Positions 2,242-60,457 of a DNA stretch of 64,000 nucleotides are shown here, one piece after another. The translations under genes were made by a program, and so were the position numbers. The stretch is from an uncultured Candidatus Saccharibacteria bacterium (GTDB lineage Bacteria > Patescibacteriota > Minisyncoccia > Sungbacterales > HO2-52-23): contig CAZPDF010000001.1 in NCBI GenBank assembly GCA_964585475.1, positions 1,441-65,440 of the forward strand, given 5' to 3'. The first letter of the stretch is position 1; each line of letters starts with the position of its first letter. The notes beneath the pieces were generated by a model that saw nothing but the letters and a program-made list of their open reading frames with translations, did not search any database and was not told where the DNA came from.

Positions 2242-2406
2242 AATTTTTTAGCCAATTAGGCCTCTCGACAAAAAGTTATTTACCGGCGAGGGGAGGATTC
2301 GAACCTCCGGTACCATTGTTGGTACACCTGTTTTTTCCCGATTTGTCCAAAATTTCGATTCAATTTGAAGAAGAAATTTTGGCAACAAATCGCAATCCCG
2401 TTCAAA

Positions 2407-2723
2407 ACGGAGGCGAGAGGATTTGAACCTCTGAGGGGATTTCGGTTGCCTTCTCGGCAAACCCCAGGGCCGACTTTTGTAAAACGTTCGCAAGGCGCAC
2501 TTAAATAAAGTAGTCGGCCCGCGAAACGATCGGTAATCGTTTCGCCCAGCCGGTTTCTTGCCCCGCACTAAAATTTGGATTTTCGGAAGCGGGAGGATTC
2601 GAACCTCCGATACGGTTTCCCGTATAACGGTTTTCGAGACCGTCCCATTCAACCACTCTGGCACGCTTCCAAATTTTTAGTGCGGGGTCGAGACCGGCGC
2701 TTTAGACCACTCAGCCACGCCTC
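2407..2723 (-). pseudogene. interrupted tRNA-Ser(CGA)-like gene (5' exon-like 2687-2723; 3' part 2407-2555) hosting the intact tRNA-Ser
   Basis: The 5' part GGAGGCG TG GCT GAGTGGTCTAA AGC G CCGGT CTCGA is canonical through position 36. The 3' part AAACCGG ... CAGAGG TTCAAAT CCTCT CGCCTCC G has a perfect 7-bp acceptor pairing. An extra ~90 nt, possibly a second insert, sits between the anticodon stem and the variable/T arm. Confidence 0.5.
2584..2669 (-). tRNA. tRNA-Ser(CGA), type II with long variable arm; no encoded CCA
   Basis: GGAAGCG TG CCA GAGTGGTTGAA TGG G ACGGT CTCGAAA ACCGT TATACGGGAAACCGTATC GGAGG TTCGAAT CCTCC CGCTTCC G. It is flanked by the inverted repeats 2560-2577 and 2668-2686. 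Confidence 0.85.
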
Positions 2724-2934
2724 CGTTTTGTCCGGGACGAGACCGTCCCATTGTTTTGCCTTCGTCGGCAAAACCCAGGGAAATTTTTTACGTTCGCACG
2801 GCTCCGCCGGCTCGCTAAATTTCCCGCGAAAGTCTATAGCTTTCGCCCACTCTGGCATCCCGCCAAATTTTTAGTGCGGGGTCGAGACCGGCGCTTTCAA
2901 TCGGACTCAGCCACCCCACCCCAAGGCGCTAGCT

Positions 2935-2963: not shown

Positions 2964-3032
2964 ACCGGCCGCCCTGCCGAAGGCACGGCTACGGCCGCCT
3001 TGGGGCGACCTGCCTCTAACGGGGTCAATGTA

Positions 3033-5064: not shown

Positions 5065-5236
5065 TTTATCCGTCCTCTACGGCTGTAAGCGAGCTGTTTA
5101 GAAAATAGCACTTTCCATAAAATTTGTCAAACCAGTTAGAAAAACGGCGGAGATGTATGAAGAATTAAATTATTTGCGGCGTCAGCGGAATTTAACAGCA
5201 ATTTGGATTCAGCAGTTTTTCTCTAACGGGGTCAAC

Positions 5237-6573: not shown

Positions 6574-7095
6574 ATGAACACCGGAGAACAGAATAGTTTT
6601 CTTAAGGCATACGAAGATTTTTCAGACGCAATCTTCCGGTATTGCTATTTTCGGCTTTATCACCGGGAACTTGCGAAGGATCTCGCGCAGGAGACATTTA
6701 TAAAGACTTGGGAATACATTGCCAAGGGAGGGAAAGTGCAGAATATACGCGCGTTTTTATACCGCGTGGCGCGAAACCTCATTATCGATGAGTCAAGGAA
6801 AAAGCGGATGTTCTCTTTGGATTTATTGCGAGAAAAAGGGTTTGATCCGGCTGTATCCATGGAGGAGGAGATACAGTCCCACGCAGGCGTAAGGGATGTA
6901 ATGAAGTTTCTTTCGGATCTTGAGCCGAAATACCGCGAAGTAATTATCTTGCGCTTCGTTGAGGACATGTCACCCAAAGAAATTGCGGAGGCGATTGGTG
7001 AATCGGAAAATAATATATCGGTACGACTCCACCGCGCAATTAAAAAAGTGCGGGAGCTAATAGAGAAGGAATCTCGCCATCATGAATCCCGTTAG
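6574..7095 (+). CDS. RNA polymerase sigma-70 factor, ECF subfamily
   Basis: 173 aa with sigma2 (ETFIKTWEY) and sigma4 HTH (PKEIAEAIGESENNISVRLHRA) regions. Confidence 0.85.
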   Translation: MNTGEQNSFLKAYEDFSDAIFRYCYFRLYHRELAKDLAQETFIKTWEYIAKGGKVQNIRAFLYRVARNLIIDESRKKRMFSLDLLREKGFDPAVSMEEEIQSHAGVRDVMKFLSDLEPKYREVIILRFVEDMSPKEIAEAIGESENNISVRLHRAIKKVRELIEKESRHHESR

Positions 7096-7202
7096 AAGCC
7101 GCGATCGCATATCAAAAATAACAAATATCTCTATGTGCAACATTTTAGGTATAAATAATCCATGTAGATCGGATCACCTGATCGCGATCTGCTTCTAACG
7201 GG

Positions 7203-8348
7203 ATGAAGCCTAATTTCGAAGAACTTATACGACTGGCAAAATCCGCCGGTCTTACGCGTGAGGAAAAGGACTCGATGAGGCGGGCGATCTTAGCATTTAT
7301 TGAATCCAGTCCTGTAAGAGTTTCGGTTTGGTCCCGTCTTCATTTTTATATTGCGGTCGAAGCGGAAAGAATAGGAGTTCTTTTCGCAAGGCCGGCGGTG
7401 AAAGCCGTGCCAATAGCTATAATTATTGTATTAATTCTGGGGGGCGGCGTTTCATACGCCGCAGAAGGGGCGCTTCCGGGAGACATACTTTATCCCGTGA
7501 AGGTTTCGATAAATGAAGAAGTTCGCGCTCGTTTTGCAATTTCTCCCGAATCCCGCGCGGCATGGGAGGCGAAAATTGCAGAAAGGCGGCTTGAAGAGGC
7601 AGAGGATCTCGTTTCCGAGGGGCGCATGAGCAGGGAGACCGCAGCGAAAATTGCGGAAAAATTTGACGCGCATGCCGAGCGGGTAAACGAACGTATTTTG
7701 GCGCTGGGCGCAGCCGATAAGGTTGAGGTGGCCGCCGATTTGAGCTCGAACTTCGAAACATCCCTTAAGGCGCACGACCGGATCCTTTGGCGTATCGCCG
7801 AGGGGCAGGAAGAAGCTAGTTCCTCGGTTAGGGAGATCCGCGAGAAGGTAAGGGCCAACGCCCGGAAGTTTATGAAAATCCGTTCTGAAAATGAGGAGAA
7901 AGTTTCCGCGTCTCTGGAAGTAAAAGCGCGAGCCGCGGCCACTGCCAAGCTGAATTCTGCGGAAGAGAAAATAAGCGAAACGAGGAAATATGCGTCTAGG
8001 ATCAAGGCACTATTGGGTGAGGTGTCTCTTGCCAGTATAGAAATGCGGCTTGAGGTTGCAACCAGGGTTCTCGCGGACGGTAAGGCGCGGTTTGAAGCAG
8101 GGGCGTACGGCGAGGCGTTTTCACTCGCCCAGAAAGCAGAGCGCATTGCTAAAGAAGCAAAACTTCTTGCGGCGGCGCGAAATGAGTTTAGAATAAATGT
8201 AGATTTTGATGAGCGCGCCGCGGCTGAGGGACTTCATAGGGATTCTGCCGCGGCATCCGATACTGAAGATAATTCTGGGGCCCACGACGATAATGATTCC
8301 GAGGATGAAAATATCCGCGATGGCGTAAAAAAGAAGGAGCAGAGATAA
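7203..8348 (+). CDS. DUF5667-domain membrane protein (anti-sigma-factor-like partner of the ECF sigma)
   Basis: 381 aa with a single TM (VPIAIIIVLILGGGV) followed by LPGDILYPVKV and a long coiled-coil ectodomain. It sits immediately downstream of the ECF sigma gene. Confidence 0.6.
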   Translation: MKPNFEELIRLAKSAGLTREEKDSMRRAILAFIESSPVRVSVWSRLHFYIAVEAERIGVLFARPAVKAVPIAIIIVLILGGGVSYAAEGALPGDILYPVKVSINEEVRARFAISPESRAAWEAKIAERRLEEAEDLVSEGRMSRETAAKIAEKFDAHAERVNERILALGAADKVEVAADLSSNFETSLKAHDRILWRIAEGQEEASSSVREIREKVRANARKFMKIRSENEEKVSASLEVKARAAATAKLNSAEEKISETRKYASRIKALLGEVSLASIEMRLEVATRVLADGKARFEAGAYGEAFSLAQKAERIAKEAKLLAAARNEFRINVDFDERAAAEGLHRDSAAASDTEDNSGAHDDNDSEDENIRDGVKKKEQR

Positions 8349-9038: not shown

Positions 9039-9159
9039 GGTGGGCAGTGAAGGAATCGAACCCCGTAGCAGAACCTTCGGTTCGCTACGGGGCAGGCCTA
9101 CGGCCTTCGCGGTGTAAACGCGACGCTCTTCCGGGGATTCTTCTATTTCGAGTGTAAAT
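9039..9159 (-). other. tRNA-Val-like element with genomically encoded 3' CCA (fragmentary or unusual tRNA)
   Basis: Minus strand contains a second copy of the Val anticodon arm TCGCG TTTACAC CGCGA, a GGCCGTAGGCC hairpin, a 9-bp hairpin CCCCGTAGC..GCTACGGGG, a T-loop-like GGTTCGATTCC and ...CACTGCCCACCA. No cloverleaf 5' acceptor partner was found. Confidence 0.3.
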
Positions 9160-9231
9160 TGGGCGCTCAAGGGATCGAACCTTGGGCCTTCTCGGTGTAA
9201 ACGAGACGCTCTACCACTGAGCTAAGCGCCC
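9160..9231 (-). tRNA. tRNA-Val(TAC)
   Basis: GGGCGCT TA GCTC AGTGGTA GAGC G TCTCG TTTACAC CGAGA AGGCC CAAGG TTCGATC CCTTG AGCGCCC A. Confidence 0.85.
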
Positions 9232-9235
9232 AAAA

Positions 9236-9667
9236 TTATTCTCCGGTCCAGCTTAATATCCAGCGCGGCTTGATTTTTAAAGTCACTCGGGAGCCGGCCT
9301 CCAGCAGCTCCTTAAAATATTTCCCCGCTTTTTCTTTTGGCAAGTACTTATATGCGAGCCGTTCTAAAAGCTTTCCTTCCGGGTCGTCCTCCATGGTGAC
9401 ATCTCCGTAACCGACAACCGCAGCATAAGGTAGAGAGTGTTCAGCAATAGAAAACCCCGCCTTGGGATCCTCCTTTAAATTTCTCGTCTTTTTACGTCCC
9501 GGGGTGGTGCTGACCAAAAAGTTTTCTCCATCATACTCAAACCACACCGGAGTTACATGAGGATATCCTTCCGGCGTAATTGTCGCAATATCCATCAGGA
9601 CAGGACGCTGAAAAAATTTTTTCATTTGTTCCGGAGTCATCCCCGGAGTTACTGGATTTGAAGACAT
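9236..9667 (-). CDS. pyridoxamine 5'-phosphate oxidase-family (FMN-binding split-barrel) protein
   Basis: 143 aa with MDIATITPEGYPHVTPVWFEYDGENFLVST, typical of the PPOX/general-stress-protein-26 fold. Confidence 0.7.
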   Translation of the reverse strand: MSSNPVTPGMTPEQMKKFFQRPVLMDIATITPEGYPHVTPVWFEYDGENFLVSTTPGRKKTRNLKEDPKAGFSIAEHSLPYAAVVGYGDVTMEDDPEGKLLERLAYKYLPKEKAGKYFKELLEAGSRVTLKIKPRWILSWTGE

Positions 9668-9668
9668 A

Positions 9669-9740
9669 TGCGCGCTGAGGGGATTGAACCCCCGACCTAC
9701 TCTACGTCAAAGAGTCGCTCTACCACTGAGCTACGCTCGC
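9669..9740 (-). tRNA. tRNA-Val(GAC); two acceptor-stem mismatches
   Basis: GCGAGCG TA GCTC AGTGGTA GAGC G ACTCT TTGACGT AGAGT AGGTC GGGGG TTCAATC CCCTC AGCGCGC A. A4:G69 and G7:A66 do not pair. Confidence 0.55.
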
Positions 9741-9822
9741 AAGTGTAACGGGGCAAGCTACCGCCTAATTTGATGAATTAGGCGAGCCTCGCTCAGCTTT
9801 GATGAGCGGGAGCCAAACGCCC

Positions 9823-10011
9823 TTATGATTTCTTCAATTTTTTAAGTTCTTCAAGTTCCGCCTGAAGATTGGCGCGTAGTTTTTCCTGCTCTTCCGGCGT
9901 TAAATCCGAAATAATATTTTTCCAGAATTTCAATTCTTCCGCATCTTCGCCAAGAAGGAGCAGTTCGTCAATGGTTGCCCCGATGTCATTATTTTTTACG
10001 CCATCGATCAT
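9823..10011 (-). CDS. small acidic hypothetical protein
   Basis: 62-aa ORF whose stop overlaps the start of the upstream gene (ATGA). Confidence 0.35.
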   Translation of the reverse strand: MIDGVKNNDIGATIDELLLLGEDAEELKFWKNIISDLTPEEQEKLRANLQAELEELKKLKKS

Positions 10012-10791: not shown

Positions 10792-11562
10792 TTATGGGGA
10801 TTGAATTTTTATGGCGTACGCGTGTTGCTTAAGCGTTTGGGCCGCTGACTTCAGCTTTTCTTGGTGGTGAGGGAAAAGATCTTTTAGGATTTCGGGATCA
10901 AGCTCAAAAATGAGCGCTGCATGCCCCACTATCGGCGCGGCATATGAAGGGTACATTTCCAGCGTTGCTGAATTGGTTGGAACGAACTCGTCTTTTTCGG
11001 CGCGTATCTGAAGGAGCTTCCGGGGATTATTTTGGATATCCTCCCGGAGTTTTGCCAGCCATTTCGAGTCCGGTCGGATTTGGCGCGCGGCCTCATGCCA
11101 GAAGACGAAACGCGCAAGGGATGATCCTCGAAAAGGCGTGCCTGCGGTGACTACCTGGAAGTGCATAAGCTCCGGGTCGCGTGCTTGAGCGGCAAGGATT
11201 ATGAGTCCTCCCATGCTGTGCCCCAAGAACACGAGGTCTTTTTCAAGGTCAGTAAGCCGCAGGCCGTATTTTTGATGCAATCTCTCTTCTTGTTTCGTGA
11301 GAAATTTGTCAAAGCGTGCTGTGAGGGTATCAATGTCTTTTCTCGCCCAGCCGGTGTCGGCGATGACCACATTAAACCCCGCATTCCCCAGCCGCGCACG
11401 CAACGGAAGCATGACCGACGGAGTTCCTCCGAGGCCATAGGCCAGAATTATATTGGGCCTTGTCGGATCAAGCTCGTTTTCTGGAATTGGTATAAGGGAG
11501 CCCGGAAAAAGGAGCAGGAGATACGAGAAAATATAGACCGCTTCTTTAATCCACTCAAACAC
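10792..11562 (-). CDS. alpha/beta hydrolase (lipase/esterase, GHSMGG nucleophile elbow)
   Basis: 256 aa. N-terminal TM/signal, then LAYGLGGTP and the GHSMGG (GxSxG) motif. Confidence 0.75.
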   Translation of the reverse strand: MFEWIKEAVYIFSYLLLLFPGSLIPIPENELDPTRPNIILAYGLGGTPSVMLPLRARLGNAGFNVVIADTGWARKDIDTLTARFDKFLTKQEERLHQKYGLRLTDLEKDLVFLGHSMGGLIILAAQARDPELMHFQVVTAGTPFRGSSLARFVFWHEAARQIRPDSKWLAKLREDIQNNPRKLLQIRAEKDEFVPTNSATLEMYPSYAAPIVGHAALIFELDPEILKDLFPHHQEKLKSAAQTLKQHAYAIKIQSP

Positions 11563-11629
11563 CGTGTTTCTCCTTTGAGAGTGCGTAGTTTATTAGTAGA
11601 GGAAATTAAGTCCGAGGTCAAATTAAATC

Positions 11630-11779
11630 ACCACCCTAGGAGGTTGTCCCAAAACTATAAAAACAACACTTTCGTCATTCTGAGCGAAGCGAAGAATCTC
11701 GTATTTAAGCCATTTCTAAACAGTGGAGATTCTTCACAAAGTTCAGAATGACAGTTTTTAGACAGCCCCCTAGGGGTGG
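11630..11779. repeat. MITE-like nested inverted-repeat element, family A, copy 1
   Basis: Outer IR CACCACCCTAGG/CCTAGGGGTGG. Inner IR CGTCATTCTGAGCGAAGCGAAGAATCTC / GAGATTCTTCACAAAGTTCAGAATGACAG. A second copy is at 49495-49620. Confidence 0.7.
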
Positions 11780-11788
11780 AAACTACAA

Positions 11789-11976
11789 TGGCCCCAATGG
11801 GATTCGAACCCATGTACTGGGCTCTTGCCCTCCCACTTTTTTGTTTGCCGCCACCGGGATTCGAACCCGGGTACCGGGCTTGAAAAGCCCGTGTCCTAGA
11901 CCAAGCTAGACGATGGCGGCGTCAAAAGTGGGAGGGTGAAAAAAGCCCATGTCCTAGGCCTCTAGACGATGGGGCC
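11789..11976 (-). repeat. nested tRNA-Glu locus: Glu-type tRNA-like gene split in the anticodon loop (5' half 11937-11976, 3' half 11789-11824) by an IR-bounded insert carrying the intact tRNA-Glu
   Basis: 5' half GGCCCCA TC GTCT AGAGGCCTA GGAC A TGGGC TTTTTTCA. IR CCCTCCCACTTTT / AAAAGTGGGAGGG, then CAAG A. 3' half GCCCA GTAC ATGGG TTCGAAT CCCAT TGGGGCC A, with a perfect 7-bp acceptor pairing between the halves. Confidence 0.6.
11846..11920 (-). tRNA. tRNA-Glu(TTC)
   Basis: GCCGCCA TC GTCT AGCTTGGTCTA GGAC A CGGGC TTTTCAA GCCCG GTAC CCGGG TTCGAAT CCCGG TGGCGGC A. Confidence 0.85.
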
Positions 11977-12083
11977 AAAATTAAGTTAAAAGCATAAAGT
12001 CAAAAGTTCAAAGTCAACGAACTAACTATATCAAAAATTTGGTAAAATTTCAAATGAAAAAACCCAACTCGACAAGAGTTAGG

Positions 12084-12395
12084 TTAGAAATCTTTGCAGG
12101 CGCCTATAGATGCGGCTTCCTCAAAATCGGTAGGGCTGCCGTCCACCAAGTCTTTAGTATCCTGAACCGGACCTACGAATATGCCGGAGAGTATGCCGGC
12201 AAGGGCATAAAATGGTGCTACCACCACCATCCCTGTGGCTTTTGCCACTTTCATCGCTGGTTGATCTTGGTGATTCAGCAGTGCTTTGGCCGGGCAAGTC
12301 ACAATGGCAGCTGGGCTAGTAACAATCCTGGTAGCCGTGGCACATCCCTGAACGAGAACTGCAGCGACGATCAAAGAACCGACGATTTTTCTCAT
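12084..12395 (-). CDS. small putative lipoprotein
   Basis: 103 aa with signal peptide and LVQGCATA lipobox. Preferred over the overlapping plus-strand ORF 12039-12428. Confidence 0.4.
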   Translation of the reverse strand: MRKIVGSLIVAAVLVQGCATATRIVTSPAAIVTCPAKALLNHQDQPAMKVAKATGMVVVAPFYALAGILSGIFVGPVQDTKDLVDGSPTDFEEAASIGACKDF

Positions 12396-16847: not shown

Positions 16848-17159
16848 GTGTGGACCCGGCGGGACTTGCACCCGCTTTCTCGCTTACCAAAGGCGAAATT
16901 TTACTCCATAAACTACAGGCCCAGGGTCCACAGAATAAAGGTAAAACAAAAGAAGCCCCTTTTCAAGGACTTCTTTTGTTTGGTAAGCGAGGACCCGCAA
17001 TTTATGCGAATTCCGCCTTGTGACTCCATTATACTCTTGCCAACTTTTATGTCAATAGGAAGTATTAACAGTAAAATTTGGTATCAATAAGCCCTTCACC
17101 CCGATTACGGCGGTTCGAGCGATCGCCCATCCGAAGCTCAAAGAACGAAGAAGAGTTGT

Positions 17160-28568: not shown

Positions 28569-28750
<182 letters not shown>

Positions 28751-47106: not shown

Positions 47107-47368
47107 GCACTCAATTTATTCTGCTATGTATTATGTCTATGTGATTCGTAATCGGAAGTCGCGGGAAACCTATATCGGTTATTCCGACGACTTGAAACGG
47201 AGGTTACGAGAACACAAGGATAAAAATCCGGAGCTTCTGTATTACGAAGCATACAAAAGCGAGAAGGATGCAAGGATACGGGAGAAAAAGCTGAAGCAGC
47301 GGGGGACAAAGCATCCGCTGGCTCAAAGAAAGATTGAAGTACAGTTTAGCAGAATAAATTGAGTGCTC
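47107..47368 (+). mobile_element. GIY-YIG nuclease ORF bracketed by perfect 21-bp inverted repeats
   Basis: GAGCACTCAATTTATTCTGCT (47107-47127) and AGCAGAATAAATTGAGTGCTC (47348-47368) flank the 78-aa ORF. Confidence 0.5.
47126..47362 (+). CDS. GIY-YIG nuclease-family protein
   Basis: MYYVYVIRNRKSRETYIGYSDDLKRRLREH, the GIY...YIG motifs with conserved Arg and Glu. Confidence 0.75.
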   Translation: MYYVYVIRNRKSRETYIGYSDDLKRRLREHKDKNPELLYYEAYKSEKDARIREKKLKQRGTKHPLAQRKIEVQFSRIN

Positions 47369-49494: not shown

Positions 49495-49620
49495 ACTGGT
49501 AGCGAGTAAACCCACAAACGTCATTCTGAGCGTAGCGAAGAATCTCTATATTTGTGTCTAAGAGATCCTTCACTTCGTTCAGGATGACAGCTAGAAATGT
49601 CGTGTTACTCGCTACCAGTT
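49495..49620. repeat. MITE-like nested inverted-repeat element, family A, copy 2
   Basis: Outer IR AACTGGTAGCGAGTAA/TTACTCGCTACCAGTT. Inner IR CGTCATTCTGAGCGTAGCGAAGAATCTC / GAGATCCTTCACTTCGTTCAGGATGACAG. Confidence 0.7.
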
Positions 49621-55075: not shown

Positions 55076-55103
55076 GGCAGTCGAAATCTGGCTGCCTTTT
55101 TAT
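55076..55103 (+). terminator. rho-independent terminator
   Basis: GGCAGTCGAAATCTGGCTGCC TTTTTATTT. Confidence 0.55.
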
Positions 55104-55104
55104 T

Positions 55105-55262
55105 TACCCCGTTACAAGAAAGCCACGGGTGTAAGCCCGTGGATGAATTGCGCCGTTCCTGCCAGCCTTAAGATAAAATGCCACGAGCGTAAGCTCGTGG
55201 TCGCCTTGTAACGGGGTTTACCGGGAAACCCCGCACGAAGTGCGGGGAGGGTGTCATTTAAT
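55105..55262. other. structured non-coding element: 12-bp closing helix CCCCGTTACAAG/CTTGTAACGGGG, twin hairpins with YGTAAG loops, then CCCCGCACGAAGTGCGGGG hairpin
   Basis: CCACGGGTGTAAGCCCGTGG and CCACGAGCGTAAGCTCGTGG hairpins inside the closing helix. No ORF. Confidence 0.4.
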
Positions 55263-59665: not shown

Positions 59666-60457
59666 TTATTCAACCTCGGTCGTCGTTTTGATTCTGACAA
59701 CCCCATCGAGACGCTGCATGTTGCCCATGAGCGACCCGATAGAGTGGAGGATCTCGGGAGTTCTACGCGCCGTGACCGTCATCTCCATTGTGATTTTGAC
59801 TACTCTTGTGAGTGGCGATTCGGGCTCGGGCTGGATTGGGGCGTCGGGCTCGACCGGAACTATGGCATCAGGCAATGCAGTAGGTGGAGTGATTTGGTGA
59901 GCGGGTTCTGCGGCAGGCACTGGGCGTTCTCTATGAGTCCAGGGGGTTTGTATAATCCGTTCCTTGAAGTTGGCGAGTTCCACGAAATTGAACTCGGTTT
60001 CAAAGAGCGGGTCGAGCGAACGACTAAGCATTGACCTCCCCTCATGGTCTAACCCCCGGGTCGCGACCCACCAGATCTTGATGCCTTTTTTTGCTTTCTC
60101 TGAGAGAACCGGCGCGTAGTCCTGGTCGGCGGTTACGATCACGATATCCGAAACTTCGGAGGGCTTAAGTTTTCTTATTGTATCGATGATCAATTGATCA
60201 TCGGCCCCGTTGATGGTCGAAGTGATGAACGCATCGAATCCTGCGGATTCAAATCTCTTAGCTAGGCTTTGGGGGTAGGGGACGTTTGAAGATATCGTCC
60301 ATAGCGGTTTTGGGTGAATCTTGGAGGCCGTCCCTATCTCCTCTGTTAGTATTTTGAAAAGAACATGGTACTTGACGTGGTCTATGCCGAGGATCGGTCG
60401 CATGAAGGAAAACGAGGGGCCGTCAACAAACACCGCTTTCGCCTTCTTCTTTGGCAT
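59666..60457 (-). CDS. NYN-domain (LabA/YacP-like PIN-fold) protein with Pro-rich C-terminal extension
   Basis: 263 aa. AVFVDGPSF...GADDQLIIDTI...IVIVTADQDY. Confidence 0.7.
   Translation of the reverse strand: MPKKKAKAVFVDGPSFSFMRPILGIDHVKYHVLFKILTEEIGTASKIHPKPLWTISSNVPYPQSLAKRFESAGFDAFITSTINGADDQLIIDTIRKLKPSEVSDIVIVTADQDYAPVLSEKAKKGIKIWWVATRGLDHEGRSMLSRSLDPLFETEFNFVELANFKERIIQTPWTHRERPVPAAEPAHQITPPTALPDAIVPVEPDAPIQPEPESPLTRVVKITMEMTVTARRTPEILHSIGSLMGNMQRLDGVVRIKTTTEVE

Follow-up and report, generated by a model that had tools for sequence, protein, structure and literature searches.

A tRNA-Glu gene nested in the anticodon loop of another tRNA-Glu gene: a probable self-compensating hairpin cassette in Patescibacteria

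A tRNA-Glu gene lies inside the anticodon loop of another tRNA-Glu gene in a 64-kb stretch of Patescibacteria DNA, which is referred to here as the window and whose positions serve as coordinates throughout. On the minus strand, between 11789 and 11976, a whole Glu-type tRNA (the shell) is split in its anticodon loop by a 113-nt insert, which consists of a perfect 13-bp inverted repeat (IR), an intact tRNA-Glu(UUC) (the cargo) and a CAAG tail. This insert is probably a small non-autonomous hairpin cassette, inserted at the DNA level and carrying a replacement tRNA for the gene that it interrupts. It looks like an undescribed small mobile element that recurs in many ultra-small groundwater bacteria. 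Full-text literature searches returned no description of a tRNA gene nested in its cognate tRNA gene, and the novelty lies in the cargo (a replacement tRNA), the target (the loops of cognate tRNAs) and the recursion that results.

According to the proposed mechanism, the cassette would land, without target-site duplication, in the single-stranded anticodon-loop region of a resident tRNA gene of the same isoacceptor. Once interrupted, this gene would be a dead tRNA that still provides the promoter and the transcript context, and ordinary 5′ and 3′ tRNA-processing enzymes would cut the cargo pre-tRNA out of the shell transcript, leaving the cargo as the working tRNA-Glu. In an essential and usually single-copy tRNA gene, survivors would be expected only among insertions that bring a cognate replacement in the correct orientation. 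Selection of this kind would explain the same-isotype rule, because only cognate-replacing insertions would survive, and a cargo of the same isoacceptor is what a lethal interruption requires, which argues that the shell is dead. Since the cargo recreates an intact target, the process could repeat, and the layers would nest.

Anatomy of the Glu nest

The nest and the promoter-like site that precedes it are composed of the following parts, in the order of the minus strand.

12025..12053, minus strand: sigma-70-like promoter, TTGAAA-17-TATAGT, TG-extended, 48 nt upstream of the shell
11976-11945, minus strand: shell 5′ half, tRNA positions 1-31 (acceptor 5′ strand, D arm, anticodon-stem 5′ strand)
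11944-11937, minus strand: anticodon-loop remnant of the shell, TTTTTTCA, which contains the TTC anticodon and A37
11936-11924, minus strand: IR-L, CCCTCCCACTTTT, left foot of the cassette hairpin (IR search; 13 nt, 100% complementary)
11923-11921, minus strand: leader GAC, 3 nt, between IR-L and cargo
11920-11846, minus strand: cargo tRNA-Glu(UUC), intact (ARAGORN; Rfam RF00005, 62 bits)
11845-11841, minus strand: trailer AACAA, 5 nt, between cargo and IR-R
11840-11828, minus strand: IR-R, AAAAGTGGGAGGG (IR search)
11827-11824, minus strand: CAAG tail, the asymmetric 4-nt end of the cassette family (CRRG: CAAG, CGAG or CAGG)
11823-11789, minus strand: shell 3′ half (A38, anticodon-stem 3′ strand, 4-nt variable loop, T arm, acceptor 3′ strand, discriminator A)

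The 5′ half of the shell reads GGCCCCA TC GTCT AGAGGCCT AGGAC A TGGGC, and its 3′ half reads A GCCCA GTAC ATGGG TTCGAAT CCCAT TGGGGCC A. As the first-pass annotation of this DNA had stated, the two halves pair perfectly, over 7/7 positions of the acceptor stem and 5/5 of the anticodon stem; the T stem is also complete (5/5). Its central claim, an intact tRNA-Glu(TTC) with inverted repeats inside the anticodon loop of a Glu-type gene, is borne out by ARAGORN, Rfam and the IR search, and its coordinates are right. The IR arms that it saw framing the inner tRNA are present and complementary at 13/13 positions, but it had left out the spacers of 3 nt and 5 nt that separate them from the inner tRNA. 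The arms are 83 nt apart, and these two are their only perfect copies in the window.

In intron mode, ARAGORN reads c[11788,11977] as a single tRNA that contains an intron of 113 nt. The 190-nt sequence folds at -98.9 kcal/mol (z = -7.3 relative to shuffled sequences). The predicted fold combines the acceptor and T arms of the shell with a long helix of anticodon stem and IR, in which a continuous 9-bp extension of the anticodon stem leads into a 4x1 internal loop and then into the 13-bp IR helix. The shell resembles a tRNA pseudogene in that it lacks a canonical 7-nt loop and is decayed in relatives, but its own stems are intact. Its loop remnant TTTTTTCA holds 2 T in excess of what a clean insertion would be expected to leave.

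The cargo is a canonical cloverleaf with a UUC anticodon, the D-arm signature of tRNA-Glu and a 4-nt variable loop. Compared with the plain tRNA-Glu of CP066690.1, a complete closed Sungbacteria genome, only 2 positions differ (D loop and T loop) once the acceptor stem is set aside, and the cargo is presumably the functional gene. The promoter listed above is the only promoter-like site in 11550-12150, the insert containing none, and it presumably drives a transcript of the entire shell and cargo. The GatB protein of the host is 69-76% identical to Sungbacteria and Parcubacteria proteins, which places the window in the Patescibacteria, as Sungbacteria-like.

Related nests and the hairpin chassis

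Metagenomes were scanned with one exact pattern, two tRNA-Glu D arms 22-44 nt apart, which matched 62 loci. An intact tRNA-Glu stands at the second D arm in 49 of the 62, representing about 40 distinct loci; 9 are not tRNA, and 4 are multi-layer or truncated. The same pattern applied to viral contigs as a control gave 2 matches and no nests. Another pattern, of two T loops (GGTTCGAATCC N25-55 GGTTCGAATCC), was tried on viral contigs and rejected, as it yielded phage tRNA arrays, with no true nests among the matches listed. The compared loci from relatives and metagenomes are labelled with L-numbers (L001, L232 and so on). In the first-pass annotation, a same-isotype nest with IR and CAAG junction had been described as a recurring design, and the Glu-in-Glu loci, together with further isotypes, confirm it. 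Contigs with Glu nests also carry Val, Lys, Leu and Gln nests, and the closed genome CP066690.1 has a tRNA-Val nest (also labelled L081 Val nest).

Insertion into the anticodon loop holds for this locus and for many others, but the insert of L267 (Gln) lies in the T loop and that of L248 (Leu) in the D region. Shell and cargo of L267 are both Gln(CTG), and since its insert sits in the T loop, the same-isoacceptor rule is independent of the anticodon-loop junction. In L244, a clean A>B>C nest was found in which A equals C, and in L210 the shell is identical to the cargo apart from the loop. A perfect 3′ half of the shell occurs in 17 metagenome loci and in the window; the others show extra inserts, mismatches or missing halves. 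L210 and L229, which are one locus in two samples, are not identical: one of the two assemblies has an additional tandem copy of a 70-nt unit (shell 5′ half, IR-L and leader), which has no matching right part and reflects either real slippage or repeat mis-assembly.

In the window, the nest and gatB are on opposite strands, the nest being immediately upstream of gatB. The first-pass annotation had tied its interpretation to the presence of the same arrangement at orthologous tRNA-Glu loci and to a shared junction signature. Both are found: a nest stands at the gatB-linked tRNA-Glu locus in four relatives (L232, L084, L290 and L291), and the hairpin with CRRG is common to dozens of independent loci. 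L290 comes from Hainich groundwater samples. A plain tRNA-Glu is present near gatB in CP066690.1 (L081) and in L001. In L001, the closest species-representative, the GatB match spans 2250 nt (377-2626) for a 511-aa query, which suggests that this gatB carries an insertion of ~700 nt, be it an intein, an intron or something else.

Comparison of these orthologous nests separates the shell from its insert. The window and L290 agree at 31/32 positions in the shell 5′ half and at 29/31 comparable positions in the 3′ half (29/34 if the stretch lost to the T-loop insert of L290 is counted), with ~50-60% identity in the IR arms and 65/76 in the cargo. The window and L232 agree at 13/16 and 15/18 positions in the arms and at 69/75 in the cargo, and at only 28/33 and 24/34 in the shell. 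In other words, the window goes with L290 in its shell and with L232 in its insert, so that shell and cassette reassort and have separate histories. This argues for a mobile or recombining unit and not for vertical co-divergence.

The junction words TTTTTTCA and CAAGA are common to the window, L232 and L290 (100%), although the arms differ. The 8-mer junction TTTTTTCA is also found in L222 and L233, and L210 and L237 have CTTTTTCA. Flanking DNA could not be aligned in any pair compared (window, L290, L232). A further outer shell of GGTCCCA type, heavily decayed, surrounds the nest of L290, and the shell acceptor of L232 carries two substitutions, both giving G.U. Moreover, L211 and L215 are near-identical in cassette and cargo, with shells that differ in the D loop, anticodon stem and T stem (sequences read by eye), and one arm family, CCCGCCTAAATTT, encloses Glu-UUC, Glu-CUC and Lys cargos.

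The chassis that carries these cargos is a hairpin with arms of 10-19 bp, a CCC...GGG foot, an A/T-rich inner part and a one-sided 4-nt CRRG tail. Almost every IR-bounded nest has this tail next to one foot, and cargo-less copies have it too. The IR arms vary between loci yet remain complementary; their G.T and A.C mismatches, compared in order to detect selection at the RNA level, number ~5 each, and these few cases show no strand bias. Relative to cargo and shell, the chassis occurs in either orientation, being inverted in L267, in L208 and in a cargo-less hairpin of the window (9061-9096). The shortest cargo-less copies measure 21 nt (CCCGTCATACGACGGGGCAAG), and others enclose contents of ~90 nt. 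Cargo-less copies and those with other contents lie between genes as well as in dead shells, where the D, anticodon, variable and T loops are all used.

Removal of hairpin and CRRG leaves a seamless 7-nt loop in the window Ser nest (insertion between positions 36 and 37), in class 2 Glu nests (between 34 and 35) and in the Leu shell of L248 (between 33 and 34). The class 2 Glu junction is GGTTC, insert, CAGG, TCAT, with the two borders directly facing each other. The nest studied here belongs to class 1 of the Glu nests, in which the shell consists of N32-N35 followed by TT and CA, the hairpin, CAAG and N38, with a surplus of 2 T; across loci the surplus is 0, +1 or +2 nt. Simple excisions from the window shell give a loop of 8, 9 or 11 nt or the wrong anticodon, and ARAGORN, run on three excision variants, called Glu only after an extra deletion of 2 T. 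The loop of L210 reads CTTTTTCA as compared with CTTTCAA in its otherwise identical cargo, and because the shell matches its cargo in all else, the surplus T is not old decay. The word 'exon-like', which the first-pass annotation had used for the edges of the insert, is therefore not supported, as no single excision gives a 7-nt anticodon loop here and shells elsewhere are visibly decaying.

No target-site duplication was found in the nests, and the window flanks, TTCA and CAAG-A, are not a direct repeat. Models of a 2-nt (CA), 4-nt or 6-nt duplication and of serine- or tyrosine-recombinase overlap were applied by hand to the window, L210, L239 and the L081 Val nest, and none of them explains the two flanks together.

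A nest filter was used on the window, in which an outer tRNA must enclose a plain tRNA and have its halves outside any plain tRNA. The rule on the halves was added because the intron mode of ARAGORN alone gave false nests from adjacent tRNAs in arrays. The filter recovered all three window nests (Ser, Glu and Thr), and in ~2.2 Mb of other DNA with >1200 tRNAs, used as a control, it returned 3 dubious cases with long introns and differing isotypes.

The Ser nest (2283-2925, minus strand) has four layers, A>B>C>D, and only the innermost is an intact tRNA-Ser(CGA) (2583-2671). The architecture had been described as equal at the Glu and Ser loci; the nest itself is shared, but at the Ser locus it is four-layered, with outer 3′ halves located far downstream. 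IR pair 1, CCCCGCACTAAAAATTT, is present with two left arms and one right arm, and pair 2, TCCCGGACAAAAC/GTTTTGAACGGGA, is distinct from it. The 3′ half of B is missing, and IR1-R before the 3′ half of A is decayed. The dead Ser layers also hold two copies of a ~100-nt element (2438-2548 and 2744-2852, minus strand; 74% identical), in which a hairpin is followed by ..TTTAGCGAGCCGG..CCGTGCGAACGT.. and by a second hairpin, TTTGCC-GAnGAA-GGCAAA. The insertion sites are the D loop and variable arm of the dead Ser shells, and a homologue is present in the T loop of the L290 Glu shell; the element could be a small RNA or another mobile element.

The Thr nest (28569-28749, plus strand) is decayed. 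Its intact tRNA-Thr(CGT) (28618-28691) is accompanied by a 10-bp IR, CCGTTAGAAA/TTTCTAACGG, and its shell has one mismatch each in the acceptor and anticodon stems and no clean loop, and is misnamed Ser or Leu by ARAGORN. CAAG is absent from the equivalent position at this locus, whose insert the first-pass annotation had wished to align with those of Ser and Glu for a common junction.

Further tRNA debris and hairpins are found in the window. The Val region (9040-9830, minus strand) opens with a Val-like 5′ piece, whose D loop carries an insert, and continues with tRNA-Val(GAC) (9668-9741), an open reading frame (ORF) of the PNPOx family (9236-9667) and tRNA-Val(TAC) (9159-9232). It ends with a partial tRNA-Val(TAC) 3′ piece, which terminates in an encoded CCA and whose T arm bears a cargo-less hairpin with CAGG (9061-9096, plus strand). 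At 16851-16922 (minus strand), Rfam reports a tRNA (42 bits) for which there is no ARAGORN call; its D region is odd, and its anticodon loop, by eye, is TTTGGTA (Pro-UGG). Directly downstream of the Glu shell, at 11634-11775, lies a ~140-nt imperfect palindrome containing the 25-mer GTCATTCTGAGCGAAGCGAAGAATC, a second copy of which, with 1 mismatch, is located at 49520-49544.

Intergenic elements at 7083-7207 and 55100-55222, and also at 3014-3024 and 5221-5231, are bounded by an IR of the CCCCGTTAGA type, a family that is also represented in the Thr nest, the CP066690.1 Val nest and the T-loop insert of L232. A tiny hairpin, GGGAAA-CCCCGCAC-GAA-GTGCGG, stands near 55225, after the intergenic element at 55100-55222. 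With arms of at least 9 nt, at most 1 mismatch and a distance within 220 nt, the window has 103 IR pairs whose right arm ends in GGG, with any tail, a count made without a shuffle control. GGG-ending pairs with a CRRG tail number 7, as compared with a mean of 0.66 in shuffled sequence. The host genome is very hairpin-rich. The only nuclease-like genes seen in the window, a 78-aa GIY-YIG ORF (47126-47362, plus strand) and an NYN-domain (RNase-like) ORF (59666-60457, minus strand), are far from the nests.

Origin of the nest and its mobilisation

Several observations weigh against a hairpin cassette inserted at the DNA level. In class 1 nests, no single contiguous excision rebuilds a 7-nt loop, where clean cut-and-paste predicts otherwise, and the left-flank 4-mers vary between nests (TTCA, TCGA, GTTC, GGTT). 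Between the window and L290, whose flanks cannot be aligned, the shell is more conserved (97%) than the cargo (86%). Two intergenic relatives of the CCCCGTTAGA type have 4-nt direct repeats at their flanks, TGAA..TGAA and TTTA..TTTA. A transposase, integrase, reverse transcriptase or RNA ligase was not found by Pfam among the ~70 window ORFs. Finally, a derivation of the nests as simple left-end plus right-end remnants of an IS200-like element (IS, insertion sequence) of Patescibacteria was rejected, as the 13-nt/10-nt linkers and the second hairpin are absent. The high conservation of the shell, odd for a pseudogene, is read here as the result of recent repeated invasion of a slow-evolving tRNA, or of a shell that was itself a former circulating cargo.

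That conservation can also be taken as a sign of function at the RNA level, with the inner tRNA acting as an intron: the cargo would be excised by RNase P and 3′ processing, the IR helix would be trimmed, and the shell halves, kept together by the IR and the tRNA stems, would be re-ligated into a second tRNA-Glu, so that both genes would be functional. Such splicing would agree with the perfect stems of the window shell, with 97% identity to L290 in the shell and not in the flanks, with the exact 7-nt loop that class 2, Ser and Leu nests give once hairpin and CRRG are removed, with further shell inserts that are confined to loops, as in multi-intron archaeal tRNAs, and with the fact that both acceptor substitutions of L232 yield G.U. 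It is nevertheless improbable. The window shell yields no correct loop by a simple excision, as described above (8, 9 or 11 nt, or the wrong anticodon), the predicted fold has no bulge-helix-bulge (BHB) motif, Rfam found no group I intron, and no splicing endonuclease or RtcB-type ligase is present by Pfam among the ~70 ORFs of the 64-kb window, to which this search applies. Many shells carry mismatches or lack a 3′ half, a spliced shell would repeat the anticodon of the cargo, hence nothing would maintain it, and the presence of a cargo is best explained by a dead shell. The narrower proposal, that proteins process the inner tRNA as an intron of the outer one, is quite improbable; RNase P and the 3′ maturase would release the cargo, the IR helix would hold the shell halves for trimming and ligation, and one transcript would give two tRNAs. 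This proposal is kept alive by the shell conservation, the seamless class 2, Ser and Leu junctions and the restriction of further inserts to loops.

A fixed, domesticated processing structure that is not now mobile would account for other features. In this case, ancient insertions or duplications would have left shell and IR as a leader-trailer stem, like the stems that flank rRNA, and the loci would have diverged vertically with compensatory change. Arms that diverge between loci and keep their complementarity, the very stable fold, the complete conservation of TTTTTTCA and CAAGA in three relatives with differing arms, and the sharing of the nest at one locus by several relatives are all compatible with it. 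What speaks against vertical descent, however, is the reassortment of shell and cassette between orthologous loci, and the equality of shell and cargo in L210 and L244 implies recent events. One chassis family extends across nests of six or more isotypes, cargo-less copies are dispersed over shells and intergenic DNA, the gene at this locus is plain in two relatives, and most tRNAs of these genomes lack such a stem; a domesticated structure is therefore unlikely. Coincidence, i.e. a decayed tandem or segmental tRNA-Glu duplicate flanking an intact copy, with the IR as a chance or unrelated hairpin, is very improbable. tRNA debris is indeed frequent in the window, for instance near the Val genes, but a symmetric perfect 13-bp IR would arise by chance at ~1e-5 per tRNA (own estimate, ~1,000 placements x 4^-13), neither arm has another perfect copy in the window, the shell halves are in register and mutually paired, and the same architecture with a CRRG tail is found at ~40 independent loci. 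A chimeric join of the tRNA-Glu genes of two strains during assembly might be suspected from the L210/L229 difference, in which an extra 5′ shell and IR-L unit has no right counterpart. This explanation is hardly credible, since nests are present in independent JGI, ENA, NCBI and Logan assemblies and the Val nest lies in the closed genome CP066690.1.

The cassette reading, a replacement tRNA brought by a hairpin element, leads to the enzyme that could move it. Tentatively, the chassis may be moved in trans by a single-strand-DNA transposase of the Y1/HUH type, either IS200/IS605 or associated with repetitive extragenic palindromic (REP) sequences, acting on cloverleaf loops; this is a possible account, on balance rather doubtful. 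Y1 and RAYT-like enzymes would fit because of the seamless insertion, the hairpin with a tetranucleotide, the preference for cloverleaf loops and the lack of coding capacity. A tblastn search over all fetched Patescibacteria loci, with an IS200 TnpA sequence as query, gave one match, a Y1_Tnp gene (Pfam, 94.7 bits) that starts ~170 nt downstream of the L226 nest. At its left end, this L226 IS has a hairpin foot, CCCCGCAC/GTGCGGGG (8 bp), that recurs identically in the window Ser IR and in the L208, L251 and L084 nests. The L226 gene (759-1205) has an in-frame TAG between its HUH and catalytic-Tyr halves, which may indicate a pseudogene, a sequencing error or recoding. No Y1 transposase gene is present in the 64-kb window.

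The Y1 family comprises >1100 homologues, and the few whose source is named are Patescibacteria. The family includes a single-copy gene with a fixed setting as well as a multi-copy IS; the ends of the latter, defined from ten copies, have the form T-run, CTATTCCAGGAAA-hairpin ... hairpin-AGTAGGTCAT(T), with no duplication. Y1 transposase P0182 (L269-L278) stands in a constant context, yidC - jag/R3H - Y1_Tnp, in ten samples; it is single-copy and RAYT-like, and it is flanked by the hairpins CCCCGGAC/GTCCGGGG and CCCCGGGC/GCCCGGGG. IS91-type elements, for their part, have the target words CTTG and GTTC and the end word CTCG (PMC13181058). The CRRG tail, once complemented, and the left flank of class 2 nests look similar to these words. 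The analogy with IS91-type rolling-circle transposition is no more than a weak lead, however, since the word belongs to the element and lies on the wrong strand, and the end word is unlike the target word.

If the cassette reading is true, ultra-small bacteria whose tRNA genes are single-copy harbour tiny mobile cassettes, each of which invades an essential tRNA gene and supplies a spare of it. This would amount to a horizontal replacement of tRNA alleles, gene by gene, and to an alternative to the splicing solution of homing introns and inteins. Layered loci would represent a molecular fossil record of successive invasions, and the hairpin with its tetranucleotide, together with the preference for cloverleaf loops, points to single-strand DNA transposition that targets DNA secondary structure, for which the possible partner enzyme is common in this bacterial group. 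If the shells were spliced instead, they would reveal a bacterial way of splicing RNA that is new and involves neither a ribozyme nor a BHB motif. There are also consequences for annotation. Standard tRNA finders give the cargo and overlook the shells, and intron-mode tools misassign shell isotypes; ARAGORN labels the nest-related sequences of the window as Cys, Phe, Leu and Ser. Censuses of tRNA in Patescibacteria, pseudogene counts and claims of a 'missing tRNA' thus need re-reading.

Comparison with known systems

The nests share much with REP/REPIN-RAYT and IS200/IS605 systems, namely a short hairpin with a GC-rich foot, a 4-nt word at that foot, no target-site duplication, some seamless insertions, single-stranded loops as targets and a non-autonomous, hairpin-rich make-up. 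In addition, an IS200-type element of the same bacterial group has the identical 8-bp hairpin foot. Unlike in IS200/IS605 or REP elements, which have one subterminal hairpin per end, both ends of a nest form one long-range hairpin; the IS linkers are missing, the left-flank word is variable, a tRNA occupies the hairpin loop, and the sites are tRNA genes. Of the marks of an element derived from IS200/IS605 or REP, the lack of duplication and the end tetranucleotide were thus found, and the subterminal hairpins and linkers were not.

Integrative elements with tyrosine integrases (phages and islands) also target tRNA genes, often in the anticodon or T loop, and offset the damage with replacement tRNA sequence. 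Such elements extend over kilobases and carry an integrase gene; what they replace is only the 3′ part of the tRNA, and direct repeats, attL and attR, remain at their ends. The nest insert, by contrast, measures 113 nt, carries a whole tRNA, is bounded by an IR without direct repeat and has the old halves nested around the new gene. No integrase was found by Pfam among the window ORFs, and no attL/attR-type repeats flank the insert. Integrase-mediated disruption of an archaeal tRNA gene has been described (PMC3293823).

Group I introns have a conserved ribozyme core (P3-P9) and a length of about 200 nt or more. The nest insert differs from them in its 113 nt, of which 75 are tRNA, in its lack of a ribozyme and in a host loop that is not restored here. 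A search for Rfam Intron_gpI gave no window match at the gathering threshold or at E<=10, and other Rfam families likewise gave nothing. Group I introns do occur in tRNA anticodon loops of Patescibacteria, including unusual positions such as 35/36 (PMC13011429). They thus share with the nests the bacterial group, the target region and a host gene that standard tRNA finders miss.

Archaeal BHB introns and split or permuted tRNAs resemble the nests in that genes are in pieces, several loop positions are used, and halves are held together by complementarity. A BHB motif places two 3-nt bulges, with a 4-bp helix between them, at the borders of exon and intron. The nest, by contrast, has a bacterial host, no BHB geometry and no splicing endonuclease among the window ORFs. 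Introns that are themselves tRNAs are not known.

Miniature inverted-repeat transposable elements (MITEs) and Rickettsia palindromic elements (RPEs) are likewise palindromic, non-coding inserts of ~100-150 nt within genes that have spread in a lineage. MITEs have target-site duplications and no functional cargo; the nests have the terminal inverted repeats of MITEs and lack the target-site duplication. An RPE is tolerated in the gene product, whereas a nest is compensated by a spare gene. With twintrons, homing introns and inteins, finally, the nests have in common recursive nesting and survival in an essential gene by cancelling the damage, and they differ from homing introns and inteins in that the damage is cancelled by a second gene and not by splicing.

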